This document shows, in pieces, positions 1 through 29,323 of a stretch of DNA of 32,000 bases. Origin of the DNA: Wolbachia endosymbiont of Cimex lectularius (GTDB lineage: Bacteria > Pseudomonadota > Alphaproteobacteria > Rickettsiales > Anaplasmataceae); assembly GCF_000829315.1 (NCBI RefSeq), contig NZ_AP013028.1, forward strand, positions 480,001 through 512,000. The letters run 5' to 3'. How positions within the stretch are numbered: position 1 is the stretch's first letter; each line of letters begins with the position of its first letter. A program made the translations under genes and the position numbers. Below the pieces are notes generated by a model. That model did not search any database and was not told where the DNA came from. It worked only from the letters and a program-made list of their open reading frames with translations.

Positions 1-37
1 ATCACCCAACGCCGGATTTTAAAATAGAGAGTGGAAT

Positions 38-105
38 AACTAGCTACCTCGGGGTTTTATTGTCCTTTTTTTCTGCCTGGTAAATTTCTTAAATATTATA
101 GCTTA
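38..105 (+). repeat. T-rich intergenic repeat module (TLR) copy 1
   Basis: Motif ...ctaCCtcGGGGTTTtattgtcCTTTTTTTCTgccTGGTAAATTTcTTAAATA. It is related by eye to seven other copies in this window, all in the same orientation. Confidence 0.6.
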
Positions 106-149
106 GACTAGTTGCGTTTAAGGCATAAAAACGCCAATACTAAAAATAA

Positions 150-212
150 ATACCGACCAGGGTTTCTTTTGCTTTTTTCTCTGTTTAGTAAATTTTTTAA
201 ATATTTATAGCT
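150..212 (+). repeat. T-rich intergenic repeat module (TLR) copy 2
   Basis: accGaCCAGGGTTTCTTTTGCTTTTTTCTCTGTTTAGTAAATTTTTTAAATA. The core is near-identical to the copies at 12234, 13367, 17345, 18455, 19539 and 29472. Confidence 0.65.
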
Positions 213-3343: not shown

Positions 3344-3398
3344 TGTTAATTTAATTTTTTCATATACAATAGTAACTGATAGAAATTTTAACTAAGTT

Positions 3399-4175: not shown

Positions 4176-4301
4176 ACTTTTCATATTACTCTCTGATCTT
4201 TAGCCGTCTTTTACAAAGTTAAAGGTTGTAACACTTAAAAATGTGGTTGAAAAATTGTGAGCAATAATGTATAATTATTAATATTTTTAAGCATTTTAGC
4301 T

Positions 4302-5222
4302 GTGGCATTTTCTAAATTTCTCGACCCTAAAAATGATGTCGCCTTCAGGCGCATCTTTGGTACAGAAAAGAACAAGGATATTCTCATTCATTTCCTCAAT
4401 GATATCTTGGGGCTCACTGGCAAGGATGAAATAAAAGAAATAGAGTTCCTCAGCACTATTCAAGATGCTGAAATTGCCTCCAAAAAGCAAAGCATTGTTG
4501 ATGTTCTCTGTAGAGATAAAAATGGGGTGCAGGTAATCGTCGAGATGCAGGTTGCTAAAACTAAAGGCTTCGAAAAACGCGCACAATACTATGCAGCTAA
4601 GGCGTATTCAAGACAGGCTAATAAAGGTGATCAATATGAAGACCTTAAAGAAATTATCTTTATCGCCATAGCAGATTGTATCCTGTTTCCGGACAAGTCC
4701 GAGTATAAATCAAAACACACTATTCGGGATGAGGATACCAATGAACATGATCTAAAAGATTTTTATTTTACATTTATTGAACTGCCAAAATTTCCCAAGA
4801 CGAAGGAAGATCAACTGGAGAGTATAGTAGAAAAATGAGTCTACTTCTTCAAGTATGCGGAGGAAACCAGTGAAAAGGAATTGGAAAGAATAATAGGAAG
4901 TGATGTAATAATCAAAAAAGCATATGAGGAGCTAAATAGATTTAACTGGTCAGAAAAGGAGTTCATAGCATATGAATAAGAGATCAAGCGTATTCGTGAT
5001 GAGAAGGCTGTCCTCGCTCAAAAACTTGATGATGCTAGAGACGAAGGCATCAAAATTGGTAAAGAGAAAGGTAGGACAGAAGGTAGAGAAGAAGGAAAAA
5101 TCGAAGTGGCAAGAGCAATGCTGGCTAATAATGTTGATGTTGATACTATTGCCAAGTGTACTAATCTCTCCATTAGCGAGATTGAAGGATTAAGGAATAT
5201 GCTTCAAGTTGAAGAAAAATAG
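4302..5222 (+). pseudogene. Rpn-family (PD-(D/E)XK, YhgA-like) nuclease/putative transposase, two in-frame stops
   Basis: GTG start; N-terminus AFSKFLDPKNDVAFRRIFGTEKNKDILIHFLNDILG. TGA at 4836-4838 replaces the TGG (W) seen in the paralogs (EKWVYFFKY). TAA at 4977-4979 replaces CAA. The frame is otherwise continuous to TAG at 5220-5222. Confidence 0.85.
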
Positions 5223-5252
5223 CAGCAGATCTGGATGAGGGAGTATAATGGC

Positions 5253-6611
5253 CTAATCCACTTTCAACTCCTCGGCATGTAAGCTACGTGGTAAAGACTC
5301 CAGTTCCTTTGCAGCACTTAGTTCTTTATTTTTTGCATGTATACCAAGCTTGTTGAACTCTCGGGCAGCAGGAAACACCCTTGCTTCAAGAGAGCCTGCA
5401 GTTTTATTGTAATGATCAACAGAACTTTTTAAGCTCCTGCGCAAATTATCAAAATTTTCACCCATTGTGCAGATACGCTCGTATAAAATATGGCCCAGTT
5501 CACTGATTTTTTTTGCACTTTCGGCTATCATTTCCTGTTTCCATCCATACGCTATTGCCCTAAGTAGTGCGATCAAAGTAATCGGTGTTGCAATAATCAC
5601 TTTTTTTTCCACCCCAATCTCTATCAAAGCGGGCTCATATTCCAGTGCTGCACTGAAAATCCCCTCCCCTGTGAGGAAAAGTACCACAAGCTCTGGCGTA
5701 TTTTCAAATTGATTCCAATATTCTTTTTTACCTAGATCATTTATATGTTTTTTTATTGCCAAAGAATGATTCTTTAATTTCTCCCTTTGTATCTGCAAAT
5801 CATTTTGTGACATAGCATCAAGATAGGAATCAAGCGGTACTTTAGCATCTATTATTATCTGCTTTCCAGATGGCATTTTAATTATCAAATCAGGGCGTAA
5901 TAAATTGTCCTCGTTTTTATCAACTACTGACGGCTGAGTAAAAAAATCGCAATATTCGATCATCCCCGCCATTTCTACCACTCTTTTTAGCTGAATTTCG
6001 CCCCATTTTCCTCTAATGTGAGGCTTCCTCAGAGCATTAGCAAGGCTAGAAGTCTGGTTCATTAACGCACCAATTTGCTCCTTTAAACCTTCATAGGCCC
6101 CTACCCTCTCCTTCTCCAGCTCGCGTATCTCGCTATCAAATTTTTCTAATTTTTCTTTTATTGGAACTACAACTTCGTTAATTGTTGCTTGTCTTTTTTT
6201 GAAATCGTTTTCTGTTTCTTTTAATTTGCCATCAATTACTTCCTTTGCCAAGTTCAAAAAATTATTATTGTTCGCCTGCAGAGCATCAAGAGACAGTGCT
6301 TTAAAAGCATTTGTGAGTCTCTCCTCAGCTTTTGTCAATAGTTCTATTTCTTTTTTCTTCTCCTCACGTTCTTTCTGCAGAGTTACTTCTAGCTCTGCGT
6401 TGCTCACTTTTAAACCTACTATTTCTTCGTCCTTATTAGTTAAAGCCTGCTTTGCTTCCTGAAGCTCATGCTCTAACTTACACAAATTACCCTCAAGATT
6501 TGCTGATTTTATTTTCTCCTCGCTCAGTTTTCTATTCTTTTTTGTGATGGTATAGAGAAAGAGTAATAAGGAGAGAAAATTTAGTCCGAGAAATATAGAA
6601 TTGAAAAGCAT
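5253..6611 (-). CDS. rmuC: DNA recombination protein RmuC
   Basis: 452 aa with an N-terminal TM segment, a long coiled coil, and the conserved RmuC core ...[23 protein letters not shown]...[23 protein letters not shown]... Confidence 0.9.
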
Positions 6612-6662
6612 CAGAATACAAAAAAATCGTACTCATAATGCTATCTAATTTTTATTTATATA

Positions 6663-6696
6663 GGAAAGAAAAAAAGGAGCACCTAAAGAGGTGCTC
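6663..6696 (-). terminator. Rho-independent terminator of the 6704-7444 gene
   Basis: Perfect 7-bp stem gagcacc (6677-6683) / ggtgctc (6690-6696) with a 6-nt loop. On the minus strand it is followed by CTTTTTTTCTTTCC. Confidence 0.65.
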
Positions 6697-6703
6697 TGTG
6701 TAA

Positions 6704-7444
6704 TTAGCAGTTTACAGAGATAGTCTTAAAGTTCCCTAGGTCTACTGAGCTAAATGCTGAGCTTGGTACACCCGAGTGATTTTCAGCAAATGCACTTTGC
6801 GATACTCTAGTTATTTCAGCAGATTTTCTGTTCTCATCCAAACCTAATTTACACATCATTCCTGATAGGTCGCTCGACTCAGAGCCATTACTATTTTGCC
6901 TTTTTACTGAATTTACGGGTAGAGATTTCTTTTCATTATTTGTATCTTGCTTTAAGCTATAAGAACCAGTAATGCAGAAATTTTCATTGCCACAGTTTAC
7001 AAATACACGAAACTCTCTAGGTCTCGTTTTATTGTTTTGGTTTGTGTTTTGGCACTTTTCCGCAAGAAATTTGTAGCCTTTATCTGTTGTAACAAGCAGT
7101 AACCCATCCTGAGTAGCCTCAAAATAACATGGTTGCCTTTTGTACTGTTTAATAGGTTTCATTGTATTATTTTGACCTTGGGGTTCGTCTGGTGCTGCTG
7201 TTGGTTGACCATGATCAACTTGATCATCCAGAGTTTCTGATGTTGTAGTTTTTGTTTGAGCAGGTTCCTGTTCCTCATTATTCGAAGATCTCTTTTGCTG
7301 TGATGCATTTTGTTGAGTAGCATTTGCTTGACTTTTGCTACCACCAAACAACCACTTCCAACCTGATGAAATCTTTCTTGCAATCCATGAAATACCAGTA
7401 TGATCAGCAACCCACTTAAAAAAACTCTTTATCTTTTCCCACAT
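6704..7444 (-). CDS. Hypothetical protein: W-rich N-terminus, Q/N/T-rich disordered region
   Basis: 246-aa ORF starting MWEKIKSFFKWVADHTGISWIARKISSGWKWLFGG, followed by a Q/N/T/E low-complexity stretch and a Cys-containing C-terminal part. It has its own terminator. I recognise no family. Confidence 0.5.
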   Translation of the reverse strand: MWEKIKSFFKWVADHTGISWIARKISSGWKWLFGGSKSQANATQQNASQQKRSSNNEEQEPAQTKTTTSETLDDQVDHGQPTAAPDEPQGQNNTMKPIKQYKRQPCYFEATQDGLLLVTTDKGYKFLAEKCQNTNQNNKTRPREFRVFVNCGNENFCITGSYSLKQDTNNEKKSLPVNSVKRQNSNGSESSDLSGMMCKLGLDENRKSAEITRVSQSAFAENHSGVPSSAFSSVDLGNFKTISVNC

Positions 7445-7550
7445 ACTTTACTCTCACTGTTAATAATAAATTAACTTAATTATTACATAAAAAACATAAC
7501 ATGTCAACTATTTTAGAGAATATTTTAGTGCTTGTCTGAGCTTGTAACCT

Positions 7551-8161
7551 TTAGCAATTAATAGCACTGGTATTTACAACCTCTCCGCCGACACGCTTAG
7601 TGATAAAAAACCTAACATAAGGTTTATTCGTATAAGGGTCTCTCAGTATTCTCATCCCTCTGCTATCTACGATCTTATAAGCCTTTTTAAAATCTGCTAT
7701 TGCGATTACCGGCAGTTTGCTTGGCGCAGGTGGCATATCAGCAGATTGATACACTGGTATCCCCATTAAAGTATCTGGAGCTTCAAGCGACAAACTTGGC
7801 TGCCAAAGGTATTGACCTGTTTGAGATTTTAGTAGCCTAACATCCTTCAACGTACTTCTATTCATCAAAAACGATGCATTTTTAGAGTAATATTCATTTA
7901 GAGAATAATACAATATCATTATTGAATCACTATCCAATTTGTTAGTTTTAATTTGCTCTATTTTATTATAACTGTTTCCATCGTCATAAGCTAAAATCCC
8001 TTTAGGCTGAAAAGTGCCCTCACCTTTAATGAAGGCTTCGTTTTCTTCCTTACTAAAAGTCTCGGCAATCTTTTCCACCAGCCAGCTTTCAACATCAACA
8101 AACGCATCATCAAGCAGCTTTTGTGATATCTGTGGCTAAGCGTATAATTCGTAAGTTGTAA
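7551..8161 (-). pseudogene. HK97-family phage major capsid protein, 3' part (IS-split, with nonsense codon)
   Basis: ...AFIKGEGTFQPKGILAY...LWQPSLSLEAPDTLMGIPVYQSADMP...MRILRDPYTNKPYVRFFITKRVGGEVVN is the typical HK97 capsid C-terminal half. There is an in-frame TAG at 8138-8136. The gene is interrupted by the IS at 8162. Confidence 0.85.
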
Positions 8162-9021
8162 GAACCTGTTTAAAATCTTCGTAACAGGAGAGAAATGAAG
8201 GAGAGGACTATCATCTGTAAGCTAGTGTTGAGCTTCCGCTCGCAATTTTTCCACAATCGCCTGCACTTTTCTAACCAGGCAAAAGAGCGTTCAACAACCC
8301 ATCTTTTTGGCAATACGACGAAAGTGTGTAACTCACTTCGCTTTATTACTTCAACAGTCGCACCAATGATAGCTTTTATTTGTGTTGCAAAATTTTCTCC
8401 TGTGTAGCCAGCATCAACCAGTATGTTTTTAACTTCAGAGAGGTTTGCTTTAGCATTTTCGACCATTTTCACAGCACTGCTACGGTCAGTTGCTTCTGCC
8501 GTTGTTACATAAATTGCATGTGGCAAACCTTGTGTATCAACTGCAATATGGCGCTTTATCCCTGAAATCTTTTTACCTGCATCATAGCCTTTTTTTTTCA
8601 GCAGTATCTGCGTTTTTAACGCTTTGAGAATCAATTATACAAAAGCTAGTTTTCTCTTTCCGACCATTGCTGATACGGACCTCTCCAACTAATTTTTTTT
8701 AAGACTAATTCCAACAAGCTTGGCTCTTCTCCATTCTTTTTACTCCACACTCGAAAATAGTAATATACGCTTTCCCATCTTGGAAAACCCTTTGGTAACA
8801 TCCTCCACTGACAACCACTTTTTAAGACGTACAACACCCCACAAAATACGTCATACAAATCAAGTTTTCTTGGTTTTGTTTTCTGCTTGCTACTCTCCAA
8901 AATTGGCCTGATTTTTTCAAACTGCTCTTGACTTATATTACTTGGATAACTTTTCTGCATAGACACCTCATTATTAATCTATGCTACTTTACCTCACATT
9001 TCCAAGATTTTAAACAGGTTC
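8162..9021 (-). mobile_element. IS5-family insertion sequence, copy 1
   Basis: 18-bp terminal inverted repeats GAACCTGTTTAAAATCTT. A TAA target duplication lies at 8159-8161 and 9022-9024. The element carries an orfA/orfB transposase. Confidence 0.9.
8170..8966 (-). pseudogene. IS5-family transposase orfAB; copy has an A9 tract that breaks orfB
   Basis: orfA is MSMQKSYPSNISQEQFEKIRPILE...CQWRMLP. orfB is ...[39 protein letters not shown]...DAGYTGENF...[13 protein letters not shown]. The homopolymer at 8590-8598 is 9 nt here versus 8 nt in the plus-strand copies, which separates IDSQSVK from GYDAGKK. Confidence 0.75.
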
Positions 9022-9589
9022 TAATGGAAATCTTTTGAATTTTAGGCGTATCTGTATCTTTTGCAAAATCATACTTGGATTTACTGCCACCATCTTCATC
9101 ATCTACTGTTTCACCACTCCAACCTGCACTAGCGCGGTCACGGTCTTCTATAATATAGTCCAATGTTTCAGTAGAGATTCTTTGACTGGAACATATTTGC
9201 CGCATTGGAGACGAGTCTGTTACACGCTTGTTTATACGTTTTACAATATGCGGAGTAATTAGATATCCTCCAATATCATTATCATCTCCACTGAGAGTTT
9301 TGCGCGATAAGCCGCTTTCCACTCCTTTGCGGATATAATCAGAAAAATATTTATCATTTGTGTCAAAATCTGTACTTACTTCTGGACGCTGAGCTACAGT
9401 TTCAATTAAATCCAAGCGTTTTTTGCAATTATCAATATCACCATCTATCTTGCATAGCTGCTCAATCGTTGCAGAGTCAGCTTGCCCTTTGCTTTCAATT
9501 TCTTTTAGTCTGCGATCATTTATTAATTTAAATTGCTCCCACGATGAAGCTAATTCATTAACACGGTGAGCGATATCAGTGAGCGACAT
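9022..9589 (-). pseudogene. HK97-family phage major capsid protein, 5' part
   Basis: AAGGAGG then ATG at 9589. The sequence MSLTDIAHRVNELASSWEQFKLINDRRLKEIESKG...GGYLITPHIV...ISTETLDYIIEDRDRASAGWSGE is the typical capsid N-terminal half. The reading frame runs into the IS end. Confidence 0.85.
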
Positions 9590-9687
9590 AATAGCCTCCT
9601 TTGAAGATGAAAAATGATTACGGTTTGTATTGGATGATACTCTAATGTAGCCTATGCTCGTTATTCCAATGCTTGAATTGGAACTTA

Positions 9688-10547
9688 GAACCTGTTTAAA
9701 ATCTTCGTAACAGGAGAGAAATGAAGGAGAGGACTATCATCTGTAAGCTAGTGTTGAGCTTCCGCTCGCAATTTTTCCACAATCGCCTGCACTTTTCTAA
9801 CCAGGCAAAAGAGCGTTCAACAACCCATCTTTTTGGCAATACGACGAAAGTGTGTAACTCACTTCGCTTATTACTTCAACAGTCGCACCAATGATAGCTT
9901 TTATTTGTGTTGCAAAATTTTCTCCTGTGTAGCCAGCATCAACCAGTATGTTTTTAACTTCAGAGAGGTTTGCTTTAGCATTTTCGACCATTTTCACAGC
10001 ACTGCTACGGTCAGTTGCTTCTGCCGTTGTTACATAAATTGCATGTGGCAAACCTTGTGTATCAACTGCAATATGGCGCTTTATCCCTGAAATCTTTTTA
10101 CCTGCATCATAGCCTTTTTTTTTCAGCAGTATCTGCGTTTTTAACGCTTTGAGAATCAATTATACAAAAGCTAGTTTTCTCTTTCCGACCATTGCTGATA
10201 CGGACCTCTCCAACTAATTTTTTTTAAGACTAATTCCAACAAGCTTGGCTCTTCTCCATTCTTTTTACTCCACACTCGAAAATAGTAATATACGCTTTCC
10301 CATCTTGGAAAACCCTTTGGTAACATCCTCCACTGACAACCACTTTTTAAGACGTACAACACCCCACAAAATACGTCATACAAATCAAGTTTTCTTGGTT
10401 TTGTTTTCTGCTTGCTACTCTCCAAAATTGGCCTGATTTTTTCAAACTGCTCTTGACTTATATTACTTGGATAACTTTTCTGCATAGACACCTCATTATT
10501 AATCTATGCTTACTTTACCTCACATTTCCAAGATTTTAAACAGGTTC
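9688..10547 (-). mobile_element. IS5-family insertion sequence, copy 2
   Basis: Same inverted repeats as copy 1. TTA duplication at 9685-9687 and 10548-10550. Confidence 0.9.
9696..10491 (-). pseudogene. IS5-family transposase, frameshifted
   Basis: orfA is intact (10171-10491). orfB has a 1-nt deletion (cgcttattac versus cgctttattac near 9866), giving ...[11 protein letters not shown], plus the 9-nt homopolymer variant. Confidence 0.8.
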
Positions 10548-11858: not shown

Positions 11859-12062
11859 CTTCTACTCTCTTTAAAAATAGGGACTTATATGCAATTGATA
11901 GCACACAATTATTAAAAAAACTGAAATCCGGCAGTTTGTTATAGCTAAGTTCTTTACAAGTAGCCTATTCTAAAATTCTTATCAGCAAGCTAGGTGTCTC
12001 CCACATATAAAACCAATTTTGGCAGCGCACTGTGCATATCATCCAGGAACGAAAAAAACTAC

Positions 12063-12091
12063 TTGACAACTTTCGCCATCACCCTTATAAT
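12063..12091 (+). promoter_or_regulatory. Consensus sigma70-type promoter inside a repeat (copy a)
   Basis: TTGACA (12063-12068), a 17-nt spacer, then TATAAT (12086-12091). The same module occurs at 17106 and 29295. Confidence 0.55.
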
Positions 12092-12233
12092 GGTACTGAA
12101 GCTATTATTTATCTTCAGTCTGTGCACCGTATGTCTTTTTAAAACTTCTGGTTTTTTACCTATACAAGCTGAAACGCGCTTATAAGTCGTTTAAAATATA
12201 AAAAAACGCCAATATTATAGGATAGATAGTAAA

Positions 12234-12292
12234 TAACTAGCTACCGGGGTTTCTTTTACTGTTTTTTCTGTTTAGTAAATTTTTTAATATAA
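12234..12292 (+). repeat. TLR copy 3
   Basis: aactagctaCCGGGGTTTCTTTTactgTTTTTTCTGTTTAGTAAATTTTTTAATA. Confidence 0.65.
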
Positions 12293-12346
12293 TTGCAATG
12301 CAAGATGAGGCTTGGGTTCGTAGGCCAATACATCCGAACAAAAAGA

Positions 12347-12375
12347 TTGAATATTTTTACAGAATTGTGTATAAT
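12347..12375 (+). promoter_or_regulatory. Putative rpn promoter
   Basis: TTGAAT (12347-12352), a 17-nt spacer, then TATAAT (12370-12375), 27 nt before the ATG. The same site is conserved upstream of the 17516 and 18624 copies. Confidence 0.5.
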
Positions 12376-12402
12376 TTTTAATACTTTTTAAGTGAATCTC
12401 TC

Positions 12403-13338
12403 ATGGCTTTATCAAAATTTCTCAATCCAAAATTGGACTTAACCTTCAAGAAAATCTTTGGCACTGAGAAAAACAAGAACATTCTTATCCATTTTCTCAA
12501 TGATATCTTAGGATTTACTGGAATAGATACTATACAAGAAGTTGAGTTTCTTAGCACCTATATGGATCCTGAAATTGCCCTCGATAAACAGAGTATCGTT
12601 GACGTTCTTTGCAAGGATTCTAGAGGGCTTAGGTACGTGATTGAGATGCAGCTTGCTCGCGATAAAGGCTTCGAAAAACGCGCTCATCTATATGCAGCTA
12701 AAGCTTATTCAAGGCAGGTTGGGAAAGGTGGCAAGTACATCGATTTAAAGACAGTATTCTTTATTGCTATTTCCGATAATGCGATATTTCCTGAGGAAGT
12801 TGAGTACATTTCTACTCATAATATACGAGAGGTAAAAACCAATGGACATTACTTAAAAGATTTTCAGTTTGTTTTTATTGAGTTGCCTAAATTCGCAAAA
12901 AACAGAGTGGAGGAACTAGAGAGCACAATAGAAAGGTGGTGTTTCTTTTTCAAGTATGCAGAGGATACTACAGATGAAGACTTAAGGAATATAGCAGAAA
13001 AATCACCAATAATAAAGCTAGCATATGATGAGTTAGACAAGTTTCGCTGGAATGAGAAAGATCTAATAGCGTATGAAGAAAGATTAATGGACCTACGCAA
13101 AGAAGAAGGCATCCTCGCTCAAAAACTTGATGATGCTACTGAAAAAGGCAGACAAGAAGGCAGAGCGGAGGGGAGAGAGGAAGGCATCCAAATCGGCCAT
13201 GAAAAAGGCAGAAAAGAAAGGGAAATTGAAGTGGCTAAAAACCTACTTAAAGCAGGAGTTTCTATTGATATCATAGCCCAAACTACTGGTCTTCCTAAAA
13301 CTGAAATTGCACAACTCACAGAAGAAGTCACGAGTTAA
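12403..13338 (+). CDS. Rpn-family (PD-(D/E)XK, YhgA-like) recombination-promoting nuclease/putative transposase
   Basis: Intact 311-aa ORF: MALSKFLNPKLDLTFKKIFGTEKNKNILIHFLNDILG...SIVDVLCKD...YVIEMQLA...FIELPKF. The C-terminus has six 12-bp G-x-x-x units and a helix-turn-helix-like tail. Confidence 0.9.
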   Translation: MALSKFLNPKLDLTFKKIFGTEKNKNILIHFLNDILGFTGIDTIQEVEFLSTYMDPEIALDKQSIVDVLCKDSRGLRYVIEMQLARDKGFEKRAHLYAAKAYSRQVGKGGKYIDLKTVFFIAISDNAIFPEEVEYISTHNIREVKTNGHYLKDFQFVFIELPKFAKNRVEELESTIERWCFFFKYAEDTTDEDLRNIAEKSPIIKLAYDELDKFRWNEKDLIAYEERLMDLRKEEGILAQKLDDATEKGRQEGRAEGREEGIQIGHEKGRKEREIEVAKNLLKAGVSIDIIAQTTGLPKTEIAQLTEEVTS

Positions 13339-13366
13339 CCGCTTAGCTACCAATATATTTTGAAGT

Positions 13367-13420
13367 AAGCTGCCCACAGGGCTTCTTTTGCTTTTTTTCC
13401 ACTTAGTAAATTTCCTAATG
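13367..13420 (+). repeat. TLR copy 4, terminator-like, 29 nt after the rpn stop
   Basis: aagctGCCCacaGGGCttcttttgctttttttcc: a weak GC hairpin plus a T-tract, then cttagtaaatttcctaatg. Confidence 0.5.
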
Positions 13421-13514
13421 TTTTTAGTCGCTGAGACAACAAATAGTGTAACGCATAAGAACCTGTTTAAAATCTTGAAAATGTGAGGTAAAGTAAGCAT
13501 AGATTAATAATGAG

Positions 13515-13781
13515 GTGTCTATGCAGAAAAGTTATCCAAGTAATATAAGTCAAGAGCAGTTTGAAAAAATCAGGCCAATTTTGGAGAGTAGCAAGCAGAA
13601 AACAAAACCAAGAAAACTTGATTTGTATGACGTATTTTGTGGGGTGTTGTACGTCTTAAAAAGTGGTTGTCAGTGGAGGATGTTACCAAAGGGTTTTCCA
13701 AGATGGGAAAGCGTATATTACTATTTTCGAGTGTGGAGTAAAAAGAATGGAGAAGAGCCAAGCTTGTTGGAATTAGTCTTA
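13515..13781 (+). pseudogene. IS5-family transposase orfA of copy 3a, cut by the nested IS
   Basis: MSMQKSYPSN...EEPSLLELVL, then the sequence enters the inverted repeat of copy 3b. Confidence 0.85.
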
Positions 13782-14646
13782 GAACCTGTTTAAAATCTTC
13801 GCAACAGAGAGAAATGAAGGAGAGGACTATCATCTGTAAGCTAGTGTTGAGCTTCCGCTCGCAATTTTTCCACAATCGCCTGCACTTTTCTAACCAGGCA
13901 AAAGAGCGTTCAACAACCCATCTTTTTGGCAATACGACGAAAGTGTGTAACTCACTTCGCTTTATTACTTCAACAGTCGCACCAATGATAGCTTTTATTT
14001 GTGTTGCAAAATTTTCTCCTGTGTAGCCAGCATCAACCAGTATGTTTTTAACTTCAGAGAGGTTTGCTTTAGCATTTTCGACCATTTTCACAGCACTGCT
14101 ACGGTCAGTTGCTTCTGCCGTTGTTACATAAATTGCATGTGGCAAACCTTGTGTATCAACTGCAATATGGCGCTTTATCCCTGAAATCTTTTTACCTGCA
14201 TCATAGCCTTTTTTTTTCAGCAATATCTGTCGTTTTTAACGCTTTGAGAATCTATTATTTTTTAAAGCTAGTTTTCATTCTTTTCGACCATTGCTGATAC
14301 GAAACTCTCAAAGTAATTTTTTTTAAGACTAATTCCAACAAGCTTGGCTCTTCTCCATTCTTTTTACTCCACACTCGAAAATAGTAATATATGCTTTTCC
14401 ATCTTGGAAAACCCTTTGGTAACATCCTCCACTGACAACCACTTTTTAAGACGTACAACACGCCACAAAATACGTCATACAAATCAAGTTTTCTTGGTTT
14501 TGTTTTCTGCTTGCTACTCTCCAAAATTGGCCTGATTTTTTCAAACTGCTCTTGACTTATATTACTTGGATAACTTTTCCGCATAGACACCTCATTATTA
14601 ATCTATGCTTACTTTACCTCACATTTCCAAGATTTTAAACAGGTTC
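13782..14646 (-). mobile_element. IS5-family insertion sequence copy 3b, a divergent variant nested in 3a
   Basis: Inverted repeats at both ends. TTA duplication at 13779-13781 and 14647-14649. The central segment at about 14221-14330 diverges from the other copies. Confidence 0.85.
13790..14590 (-). pseudogene. IS5-family transposase of copy 3b, degenerate
   Basis: orfA variant (MSMRKSY..., WKSIYYYF). Just after the A8 site the orfB frame reads LL-stop (ttactttga) instead of LVGEVR. The 9-nt homopolymer variant is present. A 1-nt deletion near the 3' end removes the normal stop. Confidence 0.75.
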
Positions 14647-14649
14647 TTA

Positions 14650-15178
14650 AAAAAAATTAGTTGGAGAGGTCCGTATCAGCAATGGTCGGAAAGAGAAAAC
14701 TAGCTTTTGTATAATTGATTCTCAAAGCGTTAAAAACGCAGATACTGCTGAAAAAAAAGGCTATGATGCAGGTAAAAAGATTTCAGGGATAAAGCGCCAT
14801 ATTGCAGTTGATACACAAGGTTTGCCACATGCAATTTATGTAACAACGGCAGAAGCAACTGACCGTAGCAGTGCTGTGAAAATGGTCGAAAATGCTAAAG
14901 CAAACCTCTCTGAAGTTAAAAACATACTGGTTGATGCTGGCTACACAGGAGAAAATTTTGCAACACAAATAAAAGCTATCATTGGTGCGACTGTTGAAGT
15001 AATAAAGCGAAGTGAGTTACACACTTTCGTCGTATTGCCAAAAAGATGGGTTGTTGAACGCTCTTTTGCCTGGTTAGAAAAGTGCAGGCGATTGTGGAAA
15101 AATTGCGAGCGGAAGCTCAACACTAGCTTACAGATGATAGTCCTCTCCTTCATTTCTCTCCTGTTACGAAGATTTTAA
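14650..15178 (+). pseudogene. IS5-family transposase orfB part of copy 3a
   Basis: ...[41 protein letters not shown]...LLLRRF is open and in one frame (A8 variant). Confidence 0.8.
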
Positions 15179-15186
15179 ACAGGTTC

Positions 15187-15936
15187 TTAGAACCAAATAT
15201 AAAATTTGCCCCCTGTGAACCCAGAAACATGAACTTGTTTATCATCATTGTACCATTCTTTAAGAAAACTAATCAATTCTCTTTTATTACTGTTTCCAAA
15301 CTCTTTTTTTCCTTCTACATACTTGATAAACTCAACAAATTCATCATTACATATAATACTATTGGGTTCTGGTATCTTCTCACCATATTCACCTTTGAGT
15401 GTATTGATGCTGTCAACAATGCTATCGTTTGCCATATGAGGCATCATATGTTCTTTCATAGCACTCATCATATTCTTTGTACCAATTAGATTCTCATACA
15501 AACCATCGGAAAGTAGCTTTAATGAAGCTTTGAGTAAGGCTATGGGGTTAAGCTTTGTTGGTCTTGTTTCAGGCTGTAATAGAATTATTCCAATTGCCAA
15601 TGGTATCGGTGCTAATAGCCAAGCTAATATTAAAGGCTTAGAAAAAAAATAATAGATTGTTAGCCCCGTAACACATGAAACTAAGATTGACTTGATTATG
15701 TTACCTTGACCAAATATTTTCCAATATTCTTTTTTTCTTATCTTCTCCCCACCTTTTATTTTTTTATATCCAAGAAATGTTTTGATTTCTGCGTCATATA
15801 GGGCAGATACCAAGCTGACTGCTATCGAAGTAGGAATGGTTGCTATAGTTAACGCATAATAAAAAGATAAATAGAGAGCAGTTCTAACTTTACTGGAGCC
15901 ACTGCGAGGAAATTGTACTTGAGAAAAACCTATCAT
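15187..15936 (-). CDS. Hypothetical membrane protein
   Basis: 249-aa ORF with about four hydrophobic segments and a soluble C-terminal part. Its TAA stop (15189-15187) coincides with the trinucleotide flanking the IS, so the 3' end may not be native. Confidence 0.5.
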   Translation of the reverse strand: MIGFSQVQFPRSGSSKVRTALYLSFYYALTIATIPTSIAVSLVSALYDAEIKTFLGYKKIKGGEKIRKKEYWKIFGQGNIIKSILVSCVTGLTIYYFFSKPLILAWLLAPIPLAIGIILLQPETRPTKLNPIALLKASLKLLSDGLYENLIGTKNMMSAMKEHMMPHMANDSIVDSINTLKGEYGEKIPEPNSIICNDEFVEFIKYVEGKKEFGNSNKRELISFLKEWYNDDKQVHVSGFTGGKFYIWF

Positions 15937-15993
15937 AACCTACTCCTTCATACTACTAAATTTTCATAATAATATACATAATGGTTTTAAATG

Positions 15994-16890
15994 TCAATGT
16001 TTAAGTATCTTATCATCCGCACACTCATCATATTCAATTTCAACTGTAGAGTGCGCTATTTCAAATTTATCCAGCAATATTTTTTTTATTCCATACAAAA
16101 TATCAGTGTGTTGCACGCTTCGCTTAATTTTAGCATGCATAGTTATTATGAAATAATTATCAGACAGTGACCATGCATGTATATGGTGTACATCTATCAC
16201 TTCAGGTAGCTTAGATACAAGCTCACTTTTTATTTCCTCAGCAGAGATACCTTCAGGTGTACCTTCAAGAAGTATATGGCAGGAATTCTTGAGAATTTTA
16301 TAGCCGCTATTTAGAATTATCACACTAACAAATACTGATAATATTGGATCTACTATTTGCCATCCAGTAAGCATGATAATTATGGATGCAAGTATAGCAG
16401 CTACAGAACCTAAAATGTCTCCTATAACGTGCAGTACGGCACTTTTTATGTTTATATTACTTTCGCATTTACTATGTAATATAAAAAAGACTACAATGTT
16501 AGCAATCAGCCCAAGTATGGCAATCATTAACATTATTTGCCACTCAACATTTACTGGAAAAATAAATCTCTTTATTGACTCAATTATGATGATTGCTGCA
16601 ATGAGAAATAGAGTTAAACCATTGACAAATGCTGCGATTATCTGCAACCGATGATACCCGTATGATCTTTGCAGGTCAGATTTCTTAGCTGAAAATCTAT
16701 GCGCTACCCAGCTTAAGACTAAGGCAAAGAGGTCAGTGAGCATATGTCCTGCATCTGATAGCAGAGCAAGCGAATGTGAAATTACTCCCCCCACTATCTC
16801 CATGAGCATTGTTATCGCAACTATTATTATGGAATAGATTAAGCGTTTGGACTCTGCTGCTGAGTGTTTACCGTTGTGTACCACTGCCAT
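15994..16890 (-). CDS. Cation diffusion facilitator family transporter (CzcD/ZitB-like)
   Basis: ...SHSLALLSDAGHMLTDLFAL...HVIGDILGSVAAI...HHIHAWSL are CDF signatures. The longest ORF (to 16956) would overlap tRNA-Val, so I start it at the ATG at 16890 (MAVVHNGKH). The ATG at 16905 is an alternative. Confidence 0.85.
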   Translation of the reverse strand: MAVVHNGKHSAAESKRLIYSIIIVAITMLMEIVGGVISHSLALLSDAGHMLTDLFALVLSWVAHRFSAKKSDLQRSYGYHRLQIIAAFVNGLTLFLIAAIIIIESIKRFIFPVNVEWQIMLMIAILGLIANIVVFFILHSKCESNINIKSAVLHVIGDILGSVAAILASIIIMLTGWQIVDPILSVFVSVIILNSGYKILKNSCHILLEGTPEGISAEEIKSELVSKLPEVIDVHHIHAWSLSDNYFIITMHAKIKRSVQHTDILYGIKKILLDKFEIAHSTVEIEYDECADDKILKH

Positions 16891-16914
16891 ATAAAATCTT
16901 TTCATGAACAAAAA

Positions 16915-16987
16915 TGGGTAACACTGGACTCGAACCAGCGACCGCTTGCACGTCAAGCAAGTGCTCTACCAACTGAGCTAATTACCC
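16915..16987 (-). tRNA. tRNA-Val (anticodon GAC)
   Basis: Minus-strand GGGTAATTAGCTCAGTTGGTAGAGCACTTGCTTGACGTGCAAGCGGTCGCTGGTTCGAGTCCAGTGTTACCCA folds by hand into a cloverleaf: 7-bp acceptor stem, GCTC/GAGC D stem, CTTGC/GCAAG anticodon stem with loop TTGACGT, and a T arm with TTCGAGT. No CCA is encoded. Confidence 0.9.
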
Positions 16988-17105
16988 ATCATGGTTTTAG
17001 TATAGTGCTTCAGCAGGATGAAAGTCAATTTGCTTTTAAACTATTGATTTTTCGCATAGCTTTTGGCAGCGCACTAGGCGTATCATCCAGGAACAAAAAA
17101 ACTAC

Positions 17106-17134
17106 TTGACAAGTTCCTCCAAACCCATTATCAT
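17106..17134 (+). promoter_or_regulatory. Near-consensus sigma70-type promoter inside a repeat (copy b)
   Basis: TTGACA (17106-17111), a 17-nt spacer, then TATCAT (17129-17134). The upstream flank ttttggcagcgcact..gc.tatcatccaggaac.aaaaaaactac is shared with copy a. Confidence 0.45.
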
Positions 17135-17344
17135 AACAACAAGGGTGTTTCTGACTCAAAACTTGTTTTTGATCTGCAGGCTCAATGACAAAATTCAGTA
17201 AAAAACTCAGGGTATTTTTTGGCGGATTGTATCAAATTATAGCGGCTGCATGTCTTTTTCATTTTTTCTACATTCAGCCAAATCGCGCTTGAACTAAGCG
17301 TCAGCAAATTATTATAGCGCCAATTTAAAGTATTATAGAGTCAA

Positions 17345-17400
17345 AACTCGCCACTCGGGATTTCTTTACCTTTTTTTCTTGCTTGGTAAATTTTTTAATA
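17345..17400 (+). repeat. TLR copy 5
   Basis: aactcgccactcGGGaTTTCTTTaCCTTTTTTTCTTGCTTGGTAAATTTTTTAATA. Confidence 0.6.
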
Positions 17401-17460
17401 TAATTGCAATGCAAGATGAGGCTTGGGTTTGTAGGCCAATACATCCAAAACAAAAAGAGA

Positions 17461-17489
17461 TTGAATATTTCTACAGAATTGTGTATAAT
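17461..17489 (+). promoter_or_regulatory. Putative rpn promoter
   Basis: TTGAAT, a 17-nt spacer, then TATAAT, in the same position relative to the start codon as at 12347. Confidence 0.45.
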
Positions 17490-17515
17490 TATTAATATTT
17501 TTAAGCACTATAGTC

Positions 17516-18426
17516 GTGGCTTTCTCAAAATTTCTCGACCCTAAAAATGATGTAGCATTTCGGCGTATCTTTGGTACAGAAAAAAATAAGGACATCCTTA
17601 TTCATTTTCTCAATGATATTTTGGGCTTTACTGGCAAGGATGAAATAAAAGAAATAGAGTTCCTCAGCACTATTCAAGATGCTGAAATTGCCTCTAAAAA
17701 ACAAAGTATTGTTGATGTTCTCTGTAGAGATAAAATGGAGTACAGGTGATCGTCAAGATGCAGGTTGCTAAAACTAAAGGCTTCGAAAAACGCGCACAAT
17801 ACTATGCAGCTAAGGCGTATTCAAGACAGGCTAATAAAGGTGATCAATATGAAGACCTTAAAGAAATTATCTTTATTGCCATTGCAGATTGTATCTTCTT
17901 TCCTGATAAGTCTGAGTATAAATCAAAGCACACTATTCGGGATGAAGATACCAATGAACATGATTTAAAAGATTTTTATTTCACATTTATTGAACTGCCA
18001 AAATTTCCAAAGACGAAGGAAGATCAATTAGAGAGTATAGTCGAGAAATGGGTCTACTTCTTCAAGTATGCGGAAGAAACTAGTGAAAAGGAATTGGAAA
18101 GAATAATAGGAAGTGACGTAATAATCAAAAAAGCATATGAGGAGCTAAATAGATTCAACTGGTCAGAAAAGGAGTTCATAGAATATGAACAAGAAATAAA
18201 GCGTATTCGTGATGAGAAGGCTGTTCTCGCTCAAAAACTTGATGATGCCACTGAAAAAGGCAGAAAAGAAGGCATCCAAATCGGCAGGGAAGAAGGCAGA
18301 AAAGAAAGGGAAATTGAAGTTGCTAAAAACCTACTTAAAGCAGGAGTTTCTATTGATATCATAGCTCAAACTACTGGTCTTCCTAGAGCTGAAATTGCAC
18401 AACTCAAAGAAGGAGTCACGAGTTAA
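17516..18426 (+). pseudogene. Rpn-family nuclease/putative transposase, frameshifted
   Basis: GTG start. The A-run at 17732-17735 is A4 where the 4302 paralog has A5 (gataaaatggag versus gataaaaatgggg). This gives TGA at 17747-17749, and the rest of the protein continues in the next frame to 18426. Confidence 0.85.
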
Positions 18427-18454
18427 TCACTTAGCTACCAATATATTTTGAAGT

Positions 18455-18510
18455 AAGCTGCCCACGGGGCTTCTTTTGCTTTTTTTCTCTATTTAGTAAA
18501 TTTTTTAATA
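18455..18510 (+). repeat. TLR copy 6, terminator-like, after the rpn stop
   Basis: aagctGCCCacgGGGCttcttttgctttttttctctatttagtaaattttttaata. Confidence 0.5.
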
Positions 18511-18568
18511 TAGTTGCAATTCAAGATGAGGCTTGGGTTCGTAGGCCAATACATCCAAAACAAAAAGA

Positions 18569-18597
18569 TTGAATATTTCTACAGAATTGTGTATAAT
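18569..18597 (+). promoter_or_regulatory. Putative rpn promoter
   Basis: TTGAAT (18569-18574), a 17-nt spacer, then TATAAT (18592-18597). Confidence 0.45.
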
Positions 18598-18623
18598 TAT
18601 TAATATTTTTAAGCATTTTAGCT

Positions 18624-19511
18624 GTGGCATTTTCTAAATTTCTCGACCCTAAAAATGATGTAGCATTTCGGCGCATCTTCGGTACTGAAAAGAATAAGGA
18701 TATTCTCATTCATTTTCTCAATGATATCTTGGGCTTCACTGGCAAGAATGAAATAAAAGAGATAGAATTCCTCAGTACTATTCAAGATGCTGAAATTGCC
18801 TCCAAAAAGCAAAGCATTGTTGATGTTCTCTGTAGAGATGAAAATGGGGTGCAGGTAATCGTCGAAATGCAGGTCGCTAAAACTAAAGGCTTTGAAAAAC
18901 GTGCTCAATACTATGCGGCTAAGGCGTATTCAAGACAGGCTAATAAAGATGATCAATATGAAGACCTTAAAGAAATTATCTTTATTGCTATAGCAGATTG
19001 TATCCTGTTTCCGGATAAGTCTGAGTATAAATCAAAACACACTATTCGGGATGAGGATACCAATGAACATGATCTAAAAGATTTTTATTTTACATTTATT
19101 GAACTGCCAAAATTTCCGAAAACGAAGGAAGATCAATTAGAGAGTATAGTTGAAAAATGGGTCTACTTCTTCAAGTATGCAGAAGAAACTAGTGAAAAGG
19201 AATTGGAAAGAATAATAGGAAGTGACGTAATAATCAAAAAAGCATATGAGGAGCTAAATAGATTCAACTGGTCAGAAAAGGAGTTCATAGAATATGAACA
19301 AGAAATAAAGCGTATCCGTGATGAGAAGGCTGTTCTCGCTCAAAAACTTGATGATGCCACTGAAAAAGGCAGAAAAGAAGGCAGAAAAGAAAGGGAAATT
19401 GAAGTGGCTAAAAACCTACTTAAAGCAGGAGTTTCTATTGATATCATAGCCCAAACTACTGGTCTTCCTAGAGCTGAAATTACACAACTCAAAGAAGAAG
19501 TCACGAGTTAA
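18624..19511 (+). CDS. Rpn-family (PD-(D/E)XK, YhgA-like) recombination-promoting nuclease/putative transposase
   Basis: Intact 295-aa ORF with a GTG start. It is close to the 4302 and 17516 copies and carries only two 12-bp G-x-x-x units. Confidence 0.9.
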   Translation: MAFSKFLDPKNDVAFRRIFGTEKNKDILIHFLNDILGFTGKNEIKEIEFLSTIQDAEIASKKQSIVDVLCRDENGVQVIVEMQVAKTKGFEKRAQYYAAKAYSRQANKDDQYEDLKEIIFIAIADCILFPDKSEYKSKHTIRDEDTNEHDLKDFYFTFIELPKFPKTKEDQLESIVEKWVYFFKYAEETSEKELERIIGSDVIIKKAYEELNRFNWSEKEFIEYEQEIKRIRDEKAVLAQKLDDATEKGRKEGRKEREIEVAKNLLKAGVSIDIIAQTTGLPRAEITQLKEEVTS

Positions 19512-19538
19512 CCGCTTAGCTACCAATATATTTTGAAG

Positions 19539-19592
19539 TAAGCTGCCCACGGGGCTTCTTTTGCTTTTTTTCGCTTAGTAAATTTTTTAATG
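19539..19592 (+). repeat. TLR copy 7, terminator-like, after the rpn stop
   Basis: aagctGCCCacgGGGCttcttttgctttttttcgcttagtaaattttttaatg. Confidence 0.5.
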
Positions 19593-19741
19593 TTTAGATT
19601 AGTGCAATTTAAGAGCAACAGCGTTATAAAAAACACCAATACTTAAAATCTAGGTTATCCTAATGACTATGCCAAATCCTCTGTGCTATGATATTTGCGA
19701 GTATCCGGTATAATACCCAATTGGTTAATTTAAATAGATAG

Positions 19742-29294: not shown

Positions 29295-29323
29295 CTTGAC
29301 AAGTTCCTTCAACCTCCTTATAA
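29295..29323 (+). promoter_or_regulatory. Consensus sigma70-type promoter inside a repeat (copy c)
   Basis: TTGACA (29295-29300), a 17-nt spacer, then TATAAT (29318-29323). The downstream block at 29330-29425 is homologous to 12098-12190. Confidence 0.55.

Follow-up and report, generated by a model that had tools for sequence, protein, structure and literature searches.

This locus raises the question of whether Wolbachia Rpn genes move as mobile elements or serve as toxin/defence modules, and the defined ends of its gene cassettes make that question testable; the gene family itself is ordinary. The window (the whole 32,000-nucleotide stretch of DNA analysed here, from wCle, the Wolbachia endosymbiont of Cimex lectularius) contains exactly four Rpn/PDDEXK_2 genes, c1 to c4, two intact and two broken (Table 1), and a tblastn search of the window turned up no further copy or fragment. 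The initial annotation had the coordinates and states of all four right, as well as the two nonsense codons of c1 (TGA at 4836-4838, Trp179; TAA at 4977-4979, Gln226) and the A-run frameshift of c3 (one A lost at 17732-17735, AAAA versus AAAAA in c1). It missed a GAG to AAG change at 17755-17757 of c3, which turns catalytic Glu81 into Lys. The c2 protein is identical to BAO99805.1 and the c4 protein to BAO99810.1; c4 is ~81% identical to a wMel-type protein (P0094).

All four genes are members of the Rpn family (YhgA-like, COG5464/TIGR01784, Pfam PDDEXK_2), as proposed, and the intact c2 and c4 match PF12784 (E = 6e-48 and 2e-54) and TIGR01784 (E = 7e-44 and 7e-50). There is also a match to phrog_3300 'transposase' (E = 8e-69), and PADLOC found no defence model matching the Rpn genes. 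Mutational evidence places the RpnA active site at D63, E82, Q84 and R94 (PMC5350276); D67, E81, Q83 and R93 of c2 and c4 align with these positions, indicating that both intact copies keep the D...E-x-Q...R residues, as had been anticipated. The predicted structure is mediocre (mean pLDDT 64.6) and gave no significant Foldseek match against the PDB, the top weak matches being PD-(D/E)XK nucleases such as EndoMS (E = 0.03).

Table 1 Features of the wCle window (positions within the window).
Feature	Position	Strand	Details
Generic intergenic repeat, partial	16..212	+	Two TLRs (52-102, 160-212), no Rpn gene
Promoter-like site upstream of c1	4247..4275	+	TTGAAA-17-TATAAT, read from sequence
c1, Rpn pseudogene	4302..5222	+	N4-type nuclease domain, beta-type C-terminal domain; 5 tetrapeptide repeats at 5037-5105
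Generic intergenic repeat copy	12062..12290	+	TTGACA-17-TATAAT at 12063-12091; ends in resident TLR 12245-12290; target of c2 cassette
Cassette c2, 1133 nt	12291..13423	+	Leader, promoter-like site (TTGAAT-17-TATAAT, 12347-12375), gene, own TLR 13377-13423
c2, intact gene	12403..13338	+	311 aa; N2-type nuclease domain, alpha-type C-terminal domain
In-frame ATG (Met229) of c2	13087..13089	+	Candidate internal start, 83-aa RpnS-like product
c2 tetrapeptide (dodecamer) repeat region	13138..13230	+	7 repeats
Generic intergenic repeat, full-length	17105..17401	+	TTGACA-17-TATCAT at 17106-17134; ends in resident TLR 17356-17401
Cassette c3, 1110 nt	17402..18511	+	Leader, promoter-like site (TTGAAT-17-TATAAT, 17461-17489), pseudogene, own TLR 18465-18511
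c3, Rpn pseudogene	17516..18426	+	5 repeats at 18250-18318
Cassette c4, 1084 nt	18512..19595	+	Leader, promoter-like site (TTGAAT-17-TATAAT, 18569-18597), gene, own TLR 19550-19595
c4, intact gene	18624..19511	+	295 aa, GTG start; 3 repeats at 19359-19403
Generic repeat paralogue	29295..29527	+	TLR 29483-29527, no Rpn cassette; unoccupied TLR in window

Three of the copies (c2, c3 and c4) are ~1.1-kb cassettes whose insertion point lies exactly behind a T-rich repeat (TLR) of ~46 nt that was already present, and the common leader, promoter-like site and TLR on both sides hold for these three, as first written. Their leaders (~110 nt) are mutually 88-97% identical, and the promoter-like site is conserved in distant Wolbachia. 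TLR matches have BLAST E values of 1e-5 to 1e-32, and the TLR pattern found no match in 100 shuffles. The TLR also occurs in the window away from Rpn genes and is the 3' terminus of an intergenic Wolbachia repeat of ~290 nt, itself found without Rpn; TLR and parent element are widespread in both orientations, which rules out the TLR as a cassette-specific end. Gene c1 lies outside any TLR cassette: upstream it has only 34 nt (4268-4301) in common with the other copies, with neither leader nor TLR, and it adjoins a phage tail-tube-type gene (PF06199) and rmuC. Its orthologues in wTis (L031) and wPaur (L072) have the same neighbours on both sides and are each broken independently.

The full-length generic repeat ahead of c3 lies directly upstream of mraY in relatives, and five or six of them keep this site unoccupied. 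Two (L083, L084) have the order czcD, tRNA-Val, element and mraY with a single TLR, against which 17402-19595 of the window is extra and flanked by two TLRs; in L087, L088, L089 and L090 the TLR is followed directly by the mraY leader. In the window, the original mraY-proximal sequence stands directly 3' of cassette c4. The insertion junction, GTAAATTTTTTA followed by ATATAATTGCAAT, is preceded by different TLR variants and is repeated in 10 of 11 non-duplicate instances from at least seven genomes. The idea of a discrete cassette is thus borne out directly, since relatives have empty sites and two loci have identical insertion junctions. Insertion rather than precise deletion rests on parsimony, and the TLR duplication could also come from RecA-dependent recombination or unequal crossing-over with the Rpn protein uninvolved. 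The cassettes are not classical insertion sequences, because no terminal inverted repeats were found on them. The only strains in which TLR-bounded cassettes were seen are wCle-like, termite-associated or from lice and cicadas (L003-L006, L034, L037, L066); wMel and WOVitA1 showed none.

A variable number of 4-residue repeats is an Rpn hallmark (PMC10400941), and the window genes carry 3, 5, 5 and 7 copies compared with 2-13 among 128 Wolbachia homologues, with period-12 repeats detected at the DNA level. The length from AQKLDDA to VAKxLL is 11-55 residues and equals 3 modulo 4 in 111/111 and 17/17 homologues; off-period lengths occur in 0/128. Beyond the repeats, the best PDB sequence match of c4 residues 246-287 is RpnA-S (7TH0), precomputed matches to PF27070 (HTH_Rpn_C) are weak in c2 and c4 and extend to most homologues, and the predicted structure has a long helix (218-267) plus two short helices (pLDDT 70-88). 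The C-terminal domain is homologous to this E. coli antitoxin. The initial annotation mentioned toxic Rpn proteins restrained by a small C-terminal protein; the source is Zhong et al. 2023 (PMC10400941), in which E. coli RpnL is toxic and restrained by RpnS, translated from its C-terminal region. For Wolbachia Rpn, the internal-antitoxin idea is only half supported. Met229 of c2 lies 17 codons before the end of AQKLDDA and its equivalent is conserved in 117 of 120 N2-type homologues, consistent with an internal start in this lineage. Where RpnA has its internal start at Met244, the c1/c3/c4 lineage offers no canonical start: 44 of 46 DNA sequences lack ATG, GTG and TTG within 20 codons of the repeats.

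Pairwise comparison of c1, c3 and c4 gives dS 0.32-0.43, dN 0.007-0.009 and omega 0.02-0.03 (4-5 non-synonymous versus 36-45 synonymous differences), and omega is 0.02-0.05 against orthologues in other strains. Even the tandem pair c3/c4 falls within this dS range, which contradicts the notion of a recently duplicating family; the copies are therefore alleles that are old or were acquired separately, and only the inactivation of c1 and c3 is recent. Sliding identity reveals that nuclease and C-terminal modules have been reshuffled at a conserved junction: every combination of N2 or N4 with alpha or beta is present among 240 homologues, and c3-c4 differences follow a 5'-to-3' gradient. The lesions of broken copies (c1, c3, L031, L034 and L056) differ, and the comparison across close relatives suggested with the initial annotation found that Rpn copy number and position vary.

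Like E. coli RpnA-E and plasmid RpnP2 (Kingston 2017, PMC5350276; PMC10400941; PDB 7TH0), the wCle genes belong to TIGR01784/COG5464 with a D...E-x-Q...R motif, order their parts as nuclease, 4-residue repeat helix and small helical C-terminal domain, and combine hypervariable repeat number, tandem arrays and variable copy number with a lack of inverted terminal repeats. They differ in having a PF12784 PDDEXK_2 rather than a PF04754 Transposase_31 nuclease domain (identity to RpnA ~22-25%) and an obligate intracellular mutualist as host. E. coli Rpn genes have variable ends and no flanking repeats according to Zhong et al. (PMC10400941), whereas three wCle copies have defined ends at a specific repeat, and relatives have the corresponding sites empty. 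The Wolbachia 'PDDEXK2 transposase' or Rpn proteins of prophage WO, cif islands and Octomom (WD0296, WD0627, WP0281) are of the same family and have in common with wCle a proximal promoter region of ~55 nt, two N-domain lineages and recombinant C-termini. Unlike these, the wCle copies lie in chromosomal intergenic repeats or beside phage-remnant (tail-tube/rmuC) genes; a search for wmk in the window found none, and no cif was detected by domain scans of ORFs at 465-11858 and 13570-23412 and in precomputed domains at ~19.7-29.3 kb. The genes had been thought undescribed in this lineage, but Wolbachia Rpn or 'PDDEXK2 transposase' genes are annotated and have been discussed near wmk, cif and Octomom (PMC6736233, PMC6967388, PMC9203015, PMC11342252, PMC12445526, PMC13439711). 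There they are called transposons with undefined ends, whereas the wCle ends are defined and do not look like transposon ends; these ends and the empty sites appear new to the literature. As a mechanistic analogy only, integron gene cassettes and IS26 translocatable units likewise turn a one-site unit and a resident site into site-unit-site, and repeated insertion gives tandem arrays. The Rpn cassettes belong to neither family; no integrase or IS26-type transposase lies beside the arrays, every cassette carries a promoter of its own, and no attC-like folded structure was found in the TLR.

The whole is probably best explained by an Rpn family encoding a restrained, potentially toxic nuclease, carried in TLR-recombined cassettes and exchanging modules. 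The N-terminal part would be a DNA endonuclease of PD-(D/E)XK type that depends on Mg and has the D...E-x-Q...R active site, and the C-terminal part a long helix of variable 4-residue repeats followed by a small HTH-like bundle homologous to RpnA-S. Judged from its E. coli homologues, the nuclease may be toxic and restrained via oligomerisation of the C-terminal domain, with repeat number deciding which partners fit. The c2 lineage may make a separate small C-terminal protein from its conserved internal Met; such a protein from a canonical start seems unlikely in the c1/c3/c4 lineage, where any restraint would therefore lie within the full-length protein or act in trans. None of the genes is an autonomous transposon. 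A cassette of leader, own promoter, gene and own 46-nt TLR would have recombined into the 3' end of a resident TLR, leaving a TLR on both sides, and modules were further exchanged between copies at two conserved junctions, one just upstream of the promoter and one at the AVLAQKLDDA block before the repeats. The nuclease domain has stayed under very strong purifying selection, and c1 and c3 were disabled only recently, c3 through the catalytic-glutamate change among others, as would be expected if an unrestrained toxic nuclease is selected against. A defence or addiction role is conceivable; the wCle window holds phage remnants only, which leaves no obvious anti-phage role at present.

The reading of Rpn genes as true transposons, in which the 'PDDEXK2 transposase' moves the cassette with the TLR as end or target, sometimes with cif or wmk as cargo, is common in the Wolbachia literature, where this multi-copy family is tied to prophage WO and cif/Octomom islands (PMC9203015, PMC11342252, PMC12445526, PMC13439711). 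Defined ends, one insertion point at two loci, empty sites, the phrog_3300 match and the RecA-independent recombination promoted by E. coli Rpn proteins (PMC5350276) agree with it. It is nonetheless improbable, with no terminal inverted repeats, a pre-existing 46-nt genomic repeat in place of a short target-site duplication, TLRs and parent elements widespread without Rpn, within-genome copies that differ by dS 0.3-0.4 rather than being near-identical, and no TLR at c1 or at the Rpn genes of supergroup A/B strains. We also know of no autonomous transposase with an Rpn-type fold. Zhong et al. saw no evidence of transposition (PMC10400941). It is very improbable that the TLR-flanked state is ancestral and the 'empty' sites are precise TLR-TLR deletions of a deletion-prone cassette. 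Such deletions are just what 46-nt direct repeats would be expected to produce, and a single locus cannot tell insertion from deletion products, yet the relatives with a single TLR span MraY identities of 92-98% and include two kinds of upstream neighbour (czcD/tRNA-Val or ftsK), at the filled site the resident TLR variant stands on the left and the cassette variant, also found with c2 at the other locus, on the right, and one leader junction stands behind unrelated TLR variants.

Possible, if rather unlikely, is a recombination or repair accessory of prophage WO and its remnants, acting in genome maintenance or rearrangement rather than as toxin/antitoxin or defence; the repeats would then merely tune dimer geometry or DNA binding. 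Rpn genes do lie inside real phage WO genomes (between tail tube and tail chaperone genes in WOVitA1; adjoining wmk in wMel), c1 has its tail-tube-type and rmuC neighbours, dN/dS is as low as in housekeeping genes, a canonical internal start is missing from the N4 lineage, and housekeeping roles are allowed by Zhong et al. (PMC10400941). Against this, hypervariable repeat number is the signature behind the defence interpretation and changes partner specificity in E. coli (PMC10400941), repeated loss through different lesions is unusual for a needed repair function, and close relatives differ in copy number and position. That all four are decaying, functionless relics with two frames open by chance is hardly credible: half of the copies are broken, relatives often have broken copies, and mobile DNA tends to erode in a long-term obligate mutualist such as wCle, but the dN/dS of 0.02-0.05 excludes the neutral values that the initial annotation associated with inert relics, synonymous differences far outnumber non-synonymous ones between copies, the active-site residues of c2 and c4 are intact, and the promoter-like site has been conserved across distant Wolbachia.

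All four Rpn reading frames lie at the coordinates assigned to them in the initial annotation. Judged by sequence, c1–c4 belong genuinely to the Rpn family (RpnL/RpnS; COG5464/TIGR01784), which is known and already annotated and is marked by an N-terminal YhgA-like PD-(D/E)XK nuclease domain: an HMM search matched PF12784 (E 6e-48/2e-54) and TIGR01784 (E 7e-44/7e-50), with scores far above both curated cut-offs. The two copies described as intact, c2 and c4, are open and encode proteins identical to BAO99805.1 and BAO99810.1. The two nonsense codons of c1 and the A-run frameshift of c3 were likewise confirmed, and c3 additionally carries a change of the catalytic glutamate that the annotation had missed. 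Mutagenesis has shown that D63, E82, Q84 and R94 of RpnA are needed for activity (PMC5350276). These residues correspond to D67, E81, Q83 and R93 of c2 and c4 in an alignment with E. coli RpnA, the columns being invariant, and c1 keeps D67, E81 and Q83 though truncated. PADLOC gave no defence-system match, only a marginal 'putative invertase' match to the C-terminal helix-turn-helix (HTH), and tblastn with N- and C-terminal queries found no fifth Rpn copy, Rpn fragment, stand-alone RpnS gene or wmk in the window. That the proteins are active, toxic and restrained, or serve in defence or addiction, is predicted from homology. A 73-codon ORF crossing the repeat region of c1 owes its open frame to two point changes near the second stop codon of that gene and is probably coincidental.

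Features of the Rpn loci and their surroundings (window positions)
Feature	Position	Details
c1, Rpn pseudogene	4302-5222	TGA 4836-4838; TAA 4977-4979
73-codon ORF	4972-5193	+ strand, +1 frame relative to c1
c2, intact Rpn	12403-13338	311 aa; candidate internal ATG (Met229) 13087-13089
c3, Rpn pseudogene	17516-18426	one A lost at 17732-17735; Glu81Lys at 17755-17757
c4, intact Rpn	18624-19511	295 aa; GTG start, as in some orthologues
Two-cassette extra DNA	17402-19595	2194 nt
~290-nt intergenic repeat	12062-12290, 17105-17401, 29295-29527, partial 16-212	29295-29527 without Rpn cassette (unoccupied); also in Wolbachia sequences L008, L012, L017, L031, L034, L037, L043, L077, L083, L089
Wmk-similar Rpn C-termini	19284-19508, 13063-13335	
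PHROG-matching C-terminal domains	19356-19487 (c4), 13153-13314 (c2)	
Ankyrin-repeat genes	465-1043 and 29601-30194 (- strand)	internal ~200-nt repeat periodicity (families D11, D15 of repeat search)
Head-tail connector and tail-tube genes, then 258-aa ORF	1496-4175	PF05135, PF06199; directly upstream of c1
HK97-type major capsid gene, split	7551-9589	C-terminal part 7551-8078; N-terminal part 8984-9589; IS ~8161-8978
Second IS5-family copy	~9687-10504	100% identical
Further IS5-family copies	start 13458, 30223	
ClpB-like gene	10510-11858 (- strand)	three ORFs: Clp_N, AAA, AAA_lid_9

The promoter-like TTGAAT-17-TATAAT site, the ~110-nt leader and the ~46-nt T-rich repeat (TLR) were found as first described at c2, c3 and c4, each of which forms a cassette of ~1.1 kb. 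The c1 gene has in common with the other copies only the last 34 nt before the start codon, and defined ends with occupied and empty sites were found for c2, c3 and c4 but not for c1. In two related assemblies (MraY identity 98% and 93%) the czcD, tRNA-Val and mraY neighbours are the same and the Rpn gene between them is absent. The intergenic region of one related Wolbachia sequence, L083, is 97.7% identical to 16841-17401 and 95.5% identical to 19550-19793, and these two matches overlap by 46 nt that constitute the TLR, so that the two-cassette segment between them is extra DNA. This segment begins exactly after the resident TLR and closes with a TLR of its own, and in four further relatives the mraY-proximal sequence follows directly after the TLR. 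The c2 locus shows the same junction (…GTAAATTTTTTA/ATATAATTGCAATGC…) behind a different resident TLR. Of 11 non-duplicate instances, drawn from at least seven genomes, 10 have the leader starting at this same point, with TLRs of differing 5' parts ahead of it. The cassette-borne TLR and the ~35 nt preceding it are 91–95% identical among c2, c3 and c4. A second empty site, for c2, was sought on contigs with an identical neighbouring Clp_N protein; all of them carry, or break within, a gene at the position and spacing of c2 (confirmed as PDDEXK_2 in two of five), and the contigs are therefore of the same lineage and provide no empty site for c2.

The TLR is not Rpn-specific: it forms the 3' terminus of an intergenic repeat of ~290 nt, which starts with an invariant, near-consensus CTTGACAA-N17-TATCAT promoter-like site, continues through a conserved body (including TATGTCTTT and AAGCTGAAACGCGCTT) and is often followed by a second module and a second TLR. 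Many Wolbachia, distant ones included, have the repeat without Rpn and in either orientation, and its presence upstream of mraY is ancestral. TLRs were located with BLAST, as an ungapped consensus search recovers only 2/8 copies because they differ by small indels. Two candidate roles were rejected. As a structured small RNA, the ~290-nt repeat yielded four pairs and no covariation in RNAalifold (13 copies), and had no Rfam match at gathering score or E ≤ 1. As an intrinsic terminator, no TLR had a qualifying hairpin in the scan, and the folding energies of six TLR regions fell within those of shuffles (z −0.9 to +1.1); a weak hairpin plus U-run occurs in the cassette TLR variant only, for which no terminator is claimed. 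Each of the two ankyrin-repeat genes in the window adjoins an Rpn-free TLR element.

The best sequence match in the PDB is RpnA-S (7TH0), an antitoxin with a crystal structure, with which the C-terminal 45 residues of the Rpn proteins align (phmmer against residues 246–287: whole-sequence E 0.1, domain conditional E 6e-7), and precomputed PF27070 (HTH_Rpn_C) matches fall in the same domain. An AlphaFold model predicts helices at 218–267, 272–279 and 283–294 and an order of secondary structure consistent with the PD-(D/E)XK fold; this model is of moderate quality (mean pLDDT 64.6, because the alignment holds close relatives only), had no Foldseek match in the PDB at E ≤ 0.001 and was used for secondary structure only. 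Tetrapeptides of the x-x-G-[R/I/K] type fill the segment between the invariant block AVLAQKLDDA and a VAKNLL block, matched in the DNA by dodecamer (period-12) repeats and numbering 5 in c1, 7 in c2, 5 in c3 and 3 in c4. Among the 128 homologues with both anchor motifs, of 240 retrieved, the anchor-to-anchor segment (11–55 residues) always measures 4n+3, in 111/111 c4-type and 17/17 c2-type proteins, and the 238 residues preceding it almost never change length. This is exactly the hypervariability described by Zhong et al. (PMC10400941), in whose work a hypervariable four-amino-acid repeat is the signature of the oligomerisation helix of RpnL/RpnS and sets partner specificity.

The small E. 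coli protein, RpnS, starts 8–20 residues ahead of the repeats, and the alignment places RpnA Met244 opposite the V/I of A-V-L-A-Q-K-L. Of 120 homologues in the c2 lineage, 117 have an in-frame Met 17 residues ahead of the repeats; in c2 itself this is Met229, which has no clear Shine–Dalgarno sequence. The c1/c3/c4 lineage has no Met in the 45 residues before the repeats (115/116 proteins), and over a distance of 20 codons from them in-frame ATG, GTG and TTG are absent (44/46 DNA sequences), leaving only AUU/AUA codons. The antitoxin translated from the C-terminal region, as the initial annotation described it, is therefore plausible as a 'gene within a gene' for c2 only, and is unsupported for c1, c3 and c4. 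An AUU codon 16 residues before the repeats is conserved in the latter lineage, and its use as a non-canonical internal start is speculative. Restraint in the c1/c3/c4 lineage would need another route: an interaction inside one full-length protein or between several, a product of a non-canonical start, or a factor supplied in trans.

Proteins outside the family resemble the Rpn C-terminus. A segment of Wmk of wMel (L081 4932-5927; …KIAKGMVKAGISVDIVSQAIGLSANE…) is similar to the RpnS-like C-terminal domain (BLASTP E 5e-10), and the two Rpn C-termini match both halves of the NCBIfam Wmk model below its cut-off (E 1e-9, 3e-8). In wMel and in two other sequences (L030, L038), wmk lies next to an Rpn gene and diverges from it. 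Two PHROG families of small phage proteins, phrog_5416 (66 aa) and phrog_12274 (138 aa), match the Rpn C-terminal domain only (E 2e-7 to 9e-5), so phages carry stand-alone RpnS-like proteins.

Sliding identity along the four genes reveals a mosaic. The leader is common to c2, c3 and c4; the nuclease domain is common to c1, c3 and c4 (87–100% per 60-nt window, against only 55–80% for c2, at ~60% protein identity); and c2, c3 and c4 are 92–100% identical over the stretch that starts at the AQKLDDA block and runs up to the TLR, where c1 is at about 50%. Among 240 Wolbachia homologues each nuclease lineage is found combined with each of the two C-terminal types, and modules have therefore been exchanged at a conserved junction ahead of the repeats, in agreement with the rpn fusions noted by Zhong et al. 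(PMC10400941). The nuclease domains of c1, c3 and c4 differ by 36–45 synonymous versus 4–5 non-synonymous changes (dS 0.32–0.43, omega 0.02–0.03; omega 0.02–0.05 against orthologues in other strains), so strong constraint has acted on alleles that are either old or were acquired separately, and the inactivation of c1 and c3 is recent. Towards the 3' end of the gene c3 and c4 become more alike, with 11 differences per 105 nt falling to 1, which suggests 3' gene conversion between the tandem copies. On either side of c1 lie rmuC and a hypothetical gene, itself after a PF06199 phage tail-tube-type gene. In wTis and wPaur an Rpn copy occupies the same place, the wTis copy having the C-terminal type of c1 and being broken differently, and further broken Rpn copies are present in wTis and wPpe.

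Of the marks of an insertion sequence or autonomous transposon, the cassettes show defined ends with occupied and empty sites. No terminal inverted repeats pair the two cassette ends, and no short target-site duplication was found, the flanking direct repeat being the pre-existing 46-nt repeat, with the resident variant as the left TLR of an occupied site and the cassette variant as the right. The near-identical copies expected of recent transposition were not seen among c1, c3 and c4 (dS 0.32–0.43). Integron gene cassettes adjoin an integrase, and no recombinase appeared in domain scans of ORFs in 465-11858 (except 1496-1822 and 2704-2961) and 13570-23412 or among precomputed domains at ~19.7-29.3 kb, where coverage ends. 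They are also promoterless, whereas each Rpn cassette carries its own promoter-like site, and unlike attC the TLR folds no better than shuffles. According to Zhong et al. (PMC10400941), rpn genes lack flanking repeats and have variable ends, to which the TLR-bounded Wolbachia cassettes are an exception. Ordinary recombination at the repeat may explain them: most simply, a resident TLR would undergo a single crossover with the one carried by a cassette, whether free or in a donor, and the tandem c3-c4 pair would stem from repeated crossover, or from crossover followed by unequal exchange.

A more far-reaching and, in our judgement, unlikely account treats the Rpn genes of one Wolbachia clade as site-specific mobile cassettes and, jointly, the lineage without an internal start as restrained in trans. 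Leader, promoter, rpn and a single T-rich site would form a unit that integrates exactly at the 3' core GTAAATTTTTTAAT of resident TLRs that terminate a promoter-bearing intergenic repeat, the site being chosen by the recombination-promoting nuclease itself or by its C-terminal HTH domain. Trans restraint would come from stand-alone RpnS-like domains, for which Wmk segments, phrog_5416 and phrog_12274 are candidates. These would then be the first Rpn genes with defined ends and a target site, and a male-killing candidate gene family would be linked to Rpn toxin/antitoxin logic. Action of the nuclease or HTH domain on the TLR would explain how Rpn genes move between Wolbachia genomes, and perhaps how neighbouring reproductive-manipulation genes move in other strains; if neither acts on it, this is an ordinary known family spreading by homologous recombination at repeats.

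In the Wolbachia literature these genes are listed as Rpn or 'PDDEXK2 transposase' and seen as prophage WO mobile elements, frequently adjoining wmk, cif and Octomom; two wMel copies tested in flies caused no male killing (PMC6736233, PMC6967388, PMC9203015, PMC11342252, PMC12445526, PMC13439711). Phage WO records place the Rpn gene inside the tail module (WOVitA1) or divergent from wmk (wMel). The literature searched held no paper that links Wolbachia Rpn to RpnL/RpnS or to repeat hypervariability, and none that defines cassette ends. Two literatures are at odds over this one gene family: in Wolbachia it is a 'transposase' carrying cif/wmk, whereas the E. coli work denies that it is a transposase and describes a toxic, anti-phage nuclease with a built-in antitoxin. 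At this locus the choice can be made concrete: the cassettes have exact ends and a 46-nt target repeat, close relatives offer occupied as well as empty sites, the two intact paralogues contrast in repeat number (3 against 7) and in the presence of a candidate internal start, and c3 is a natural knockout of a catalytic residue. New here are the exact cassette with its empty sites, the finding that Wolbachia Rpn show the same hypervariable repeats, the shuffling of modules, the contrast between lineages in internal starts and the strength of selection.

The wCle strain is a nutritional mutualist of the bedbug and belongs to supergroup F. Its window (G+C 33–40%) holds ankyrin genes, phage head and tail remnants, IS5-family copies and alphaproteobacterial housekeeping genes. 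The capsid gene is split by an IS5-family insertion, and the ClpB-like gene is broken into three ORFs, a fragmentation also seen, with identical proteins, in several related assemblies. The order of tail-tube gene, 258-aa ORF, Rpn copy and rmuC around c1 is the same in wTis (L031), and in wPaur (L072) the tail-tube/258-aa ORF/Rpn order is kept as far as the contig reaches, to its end within the Rpn gene.
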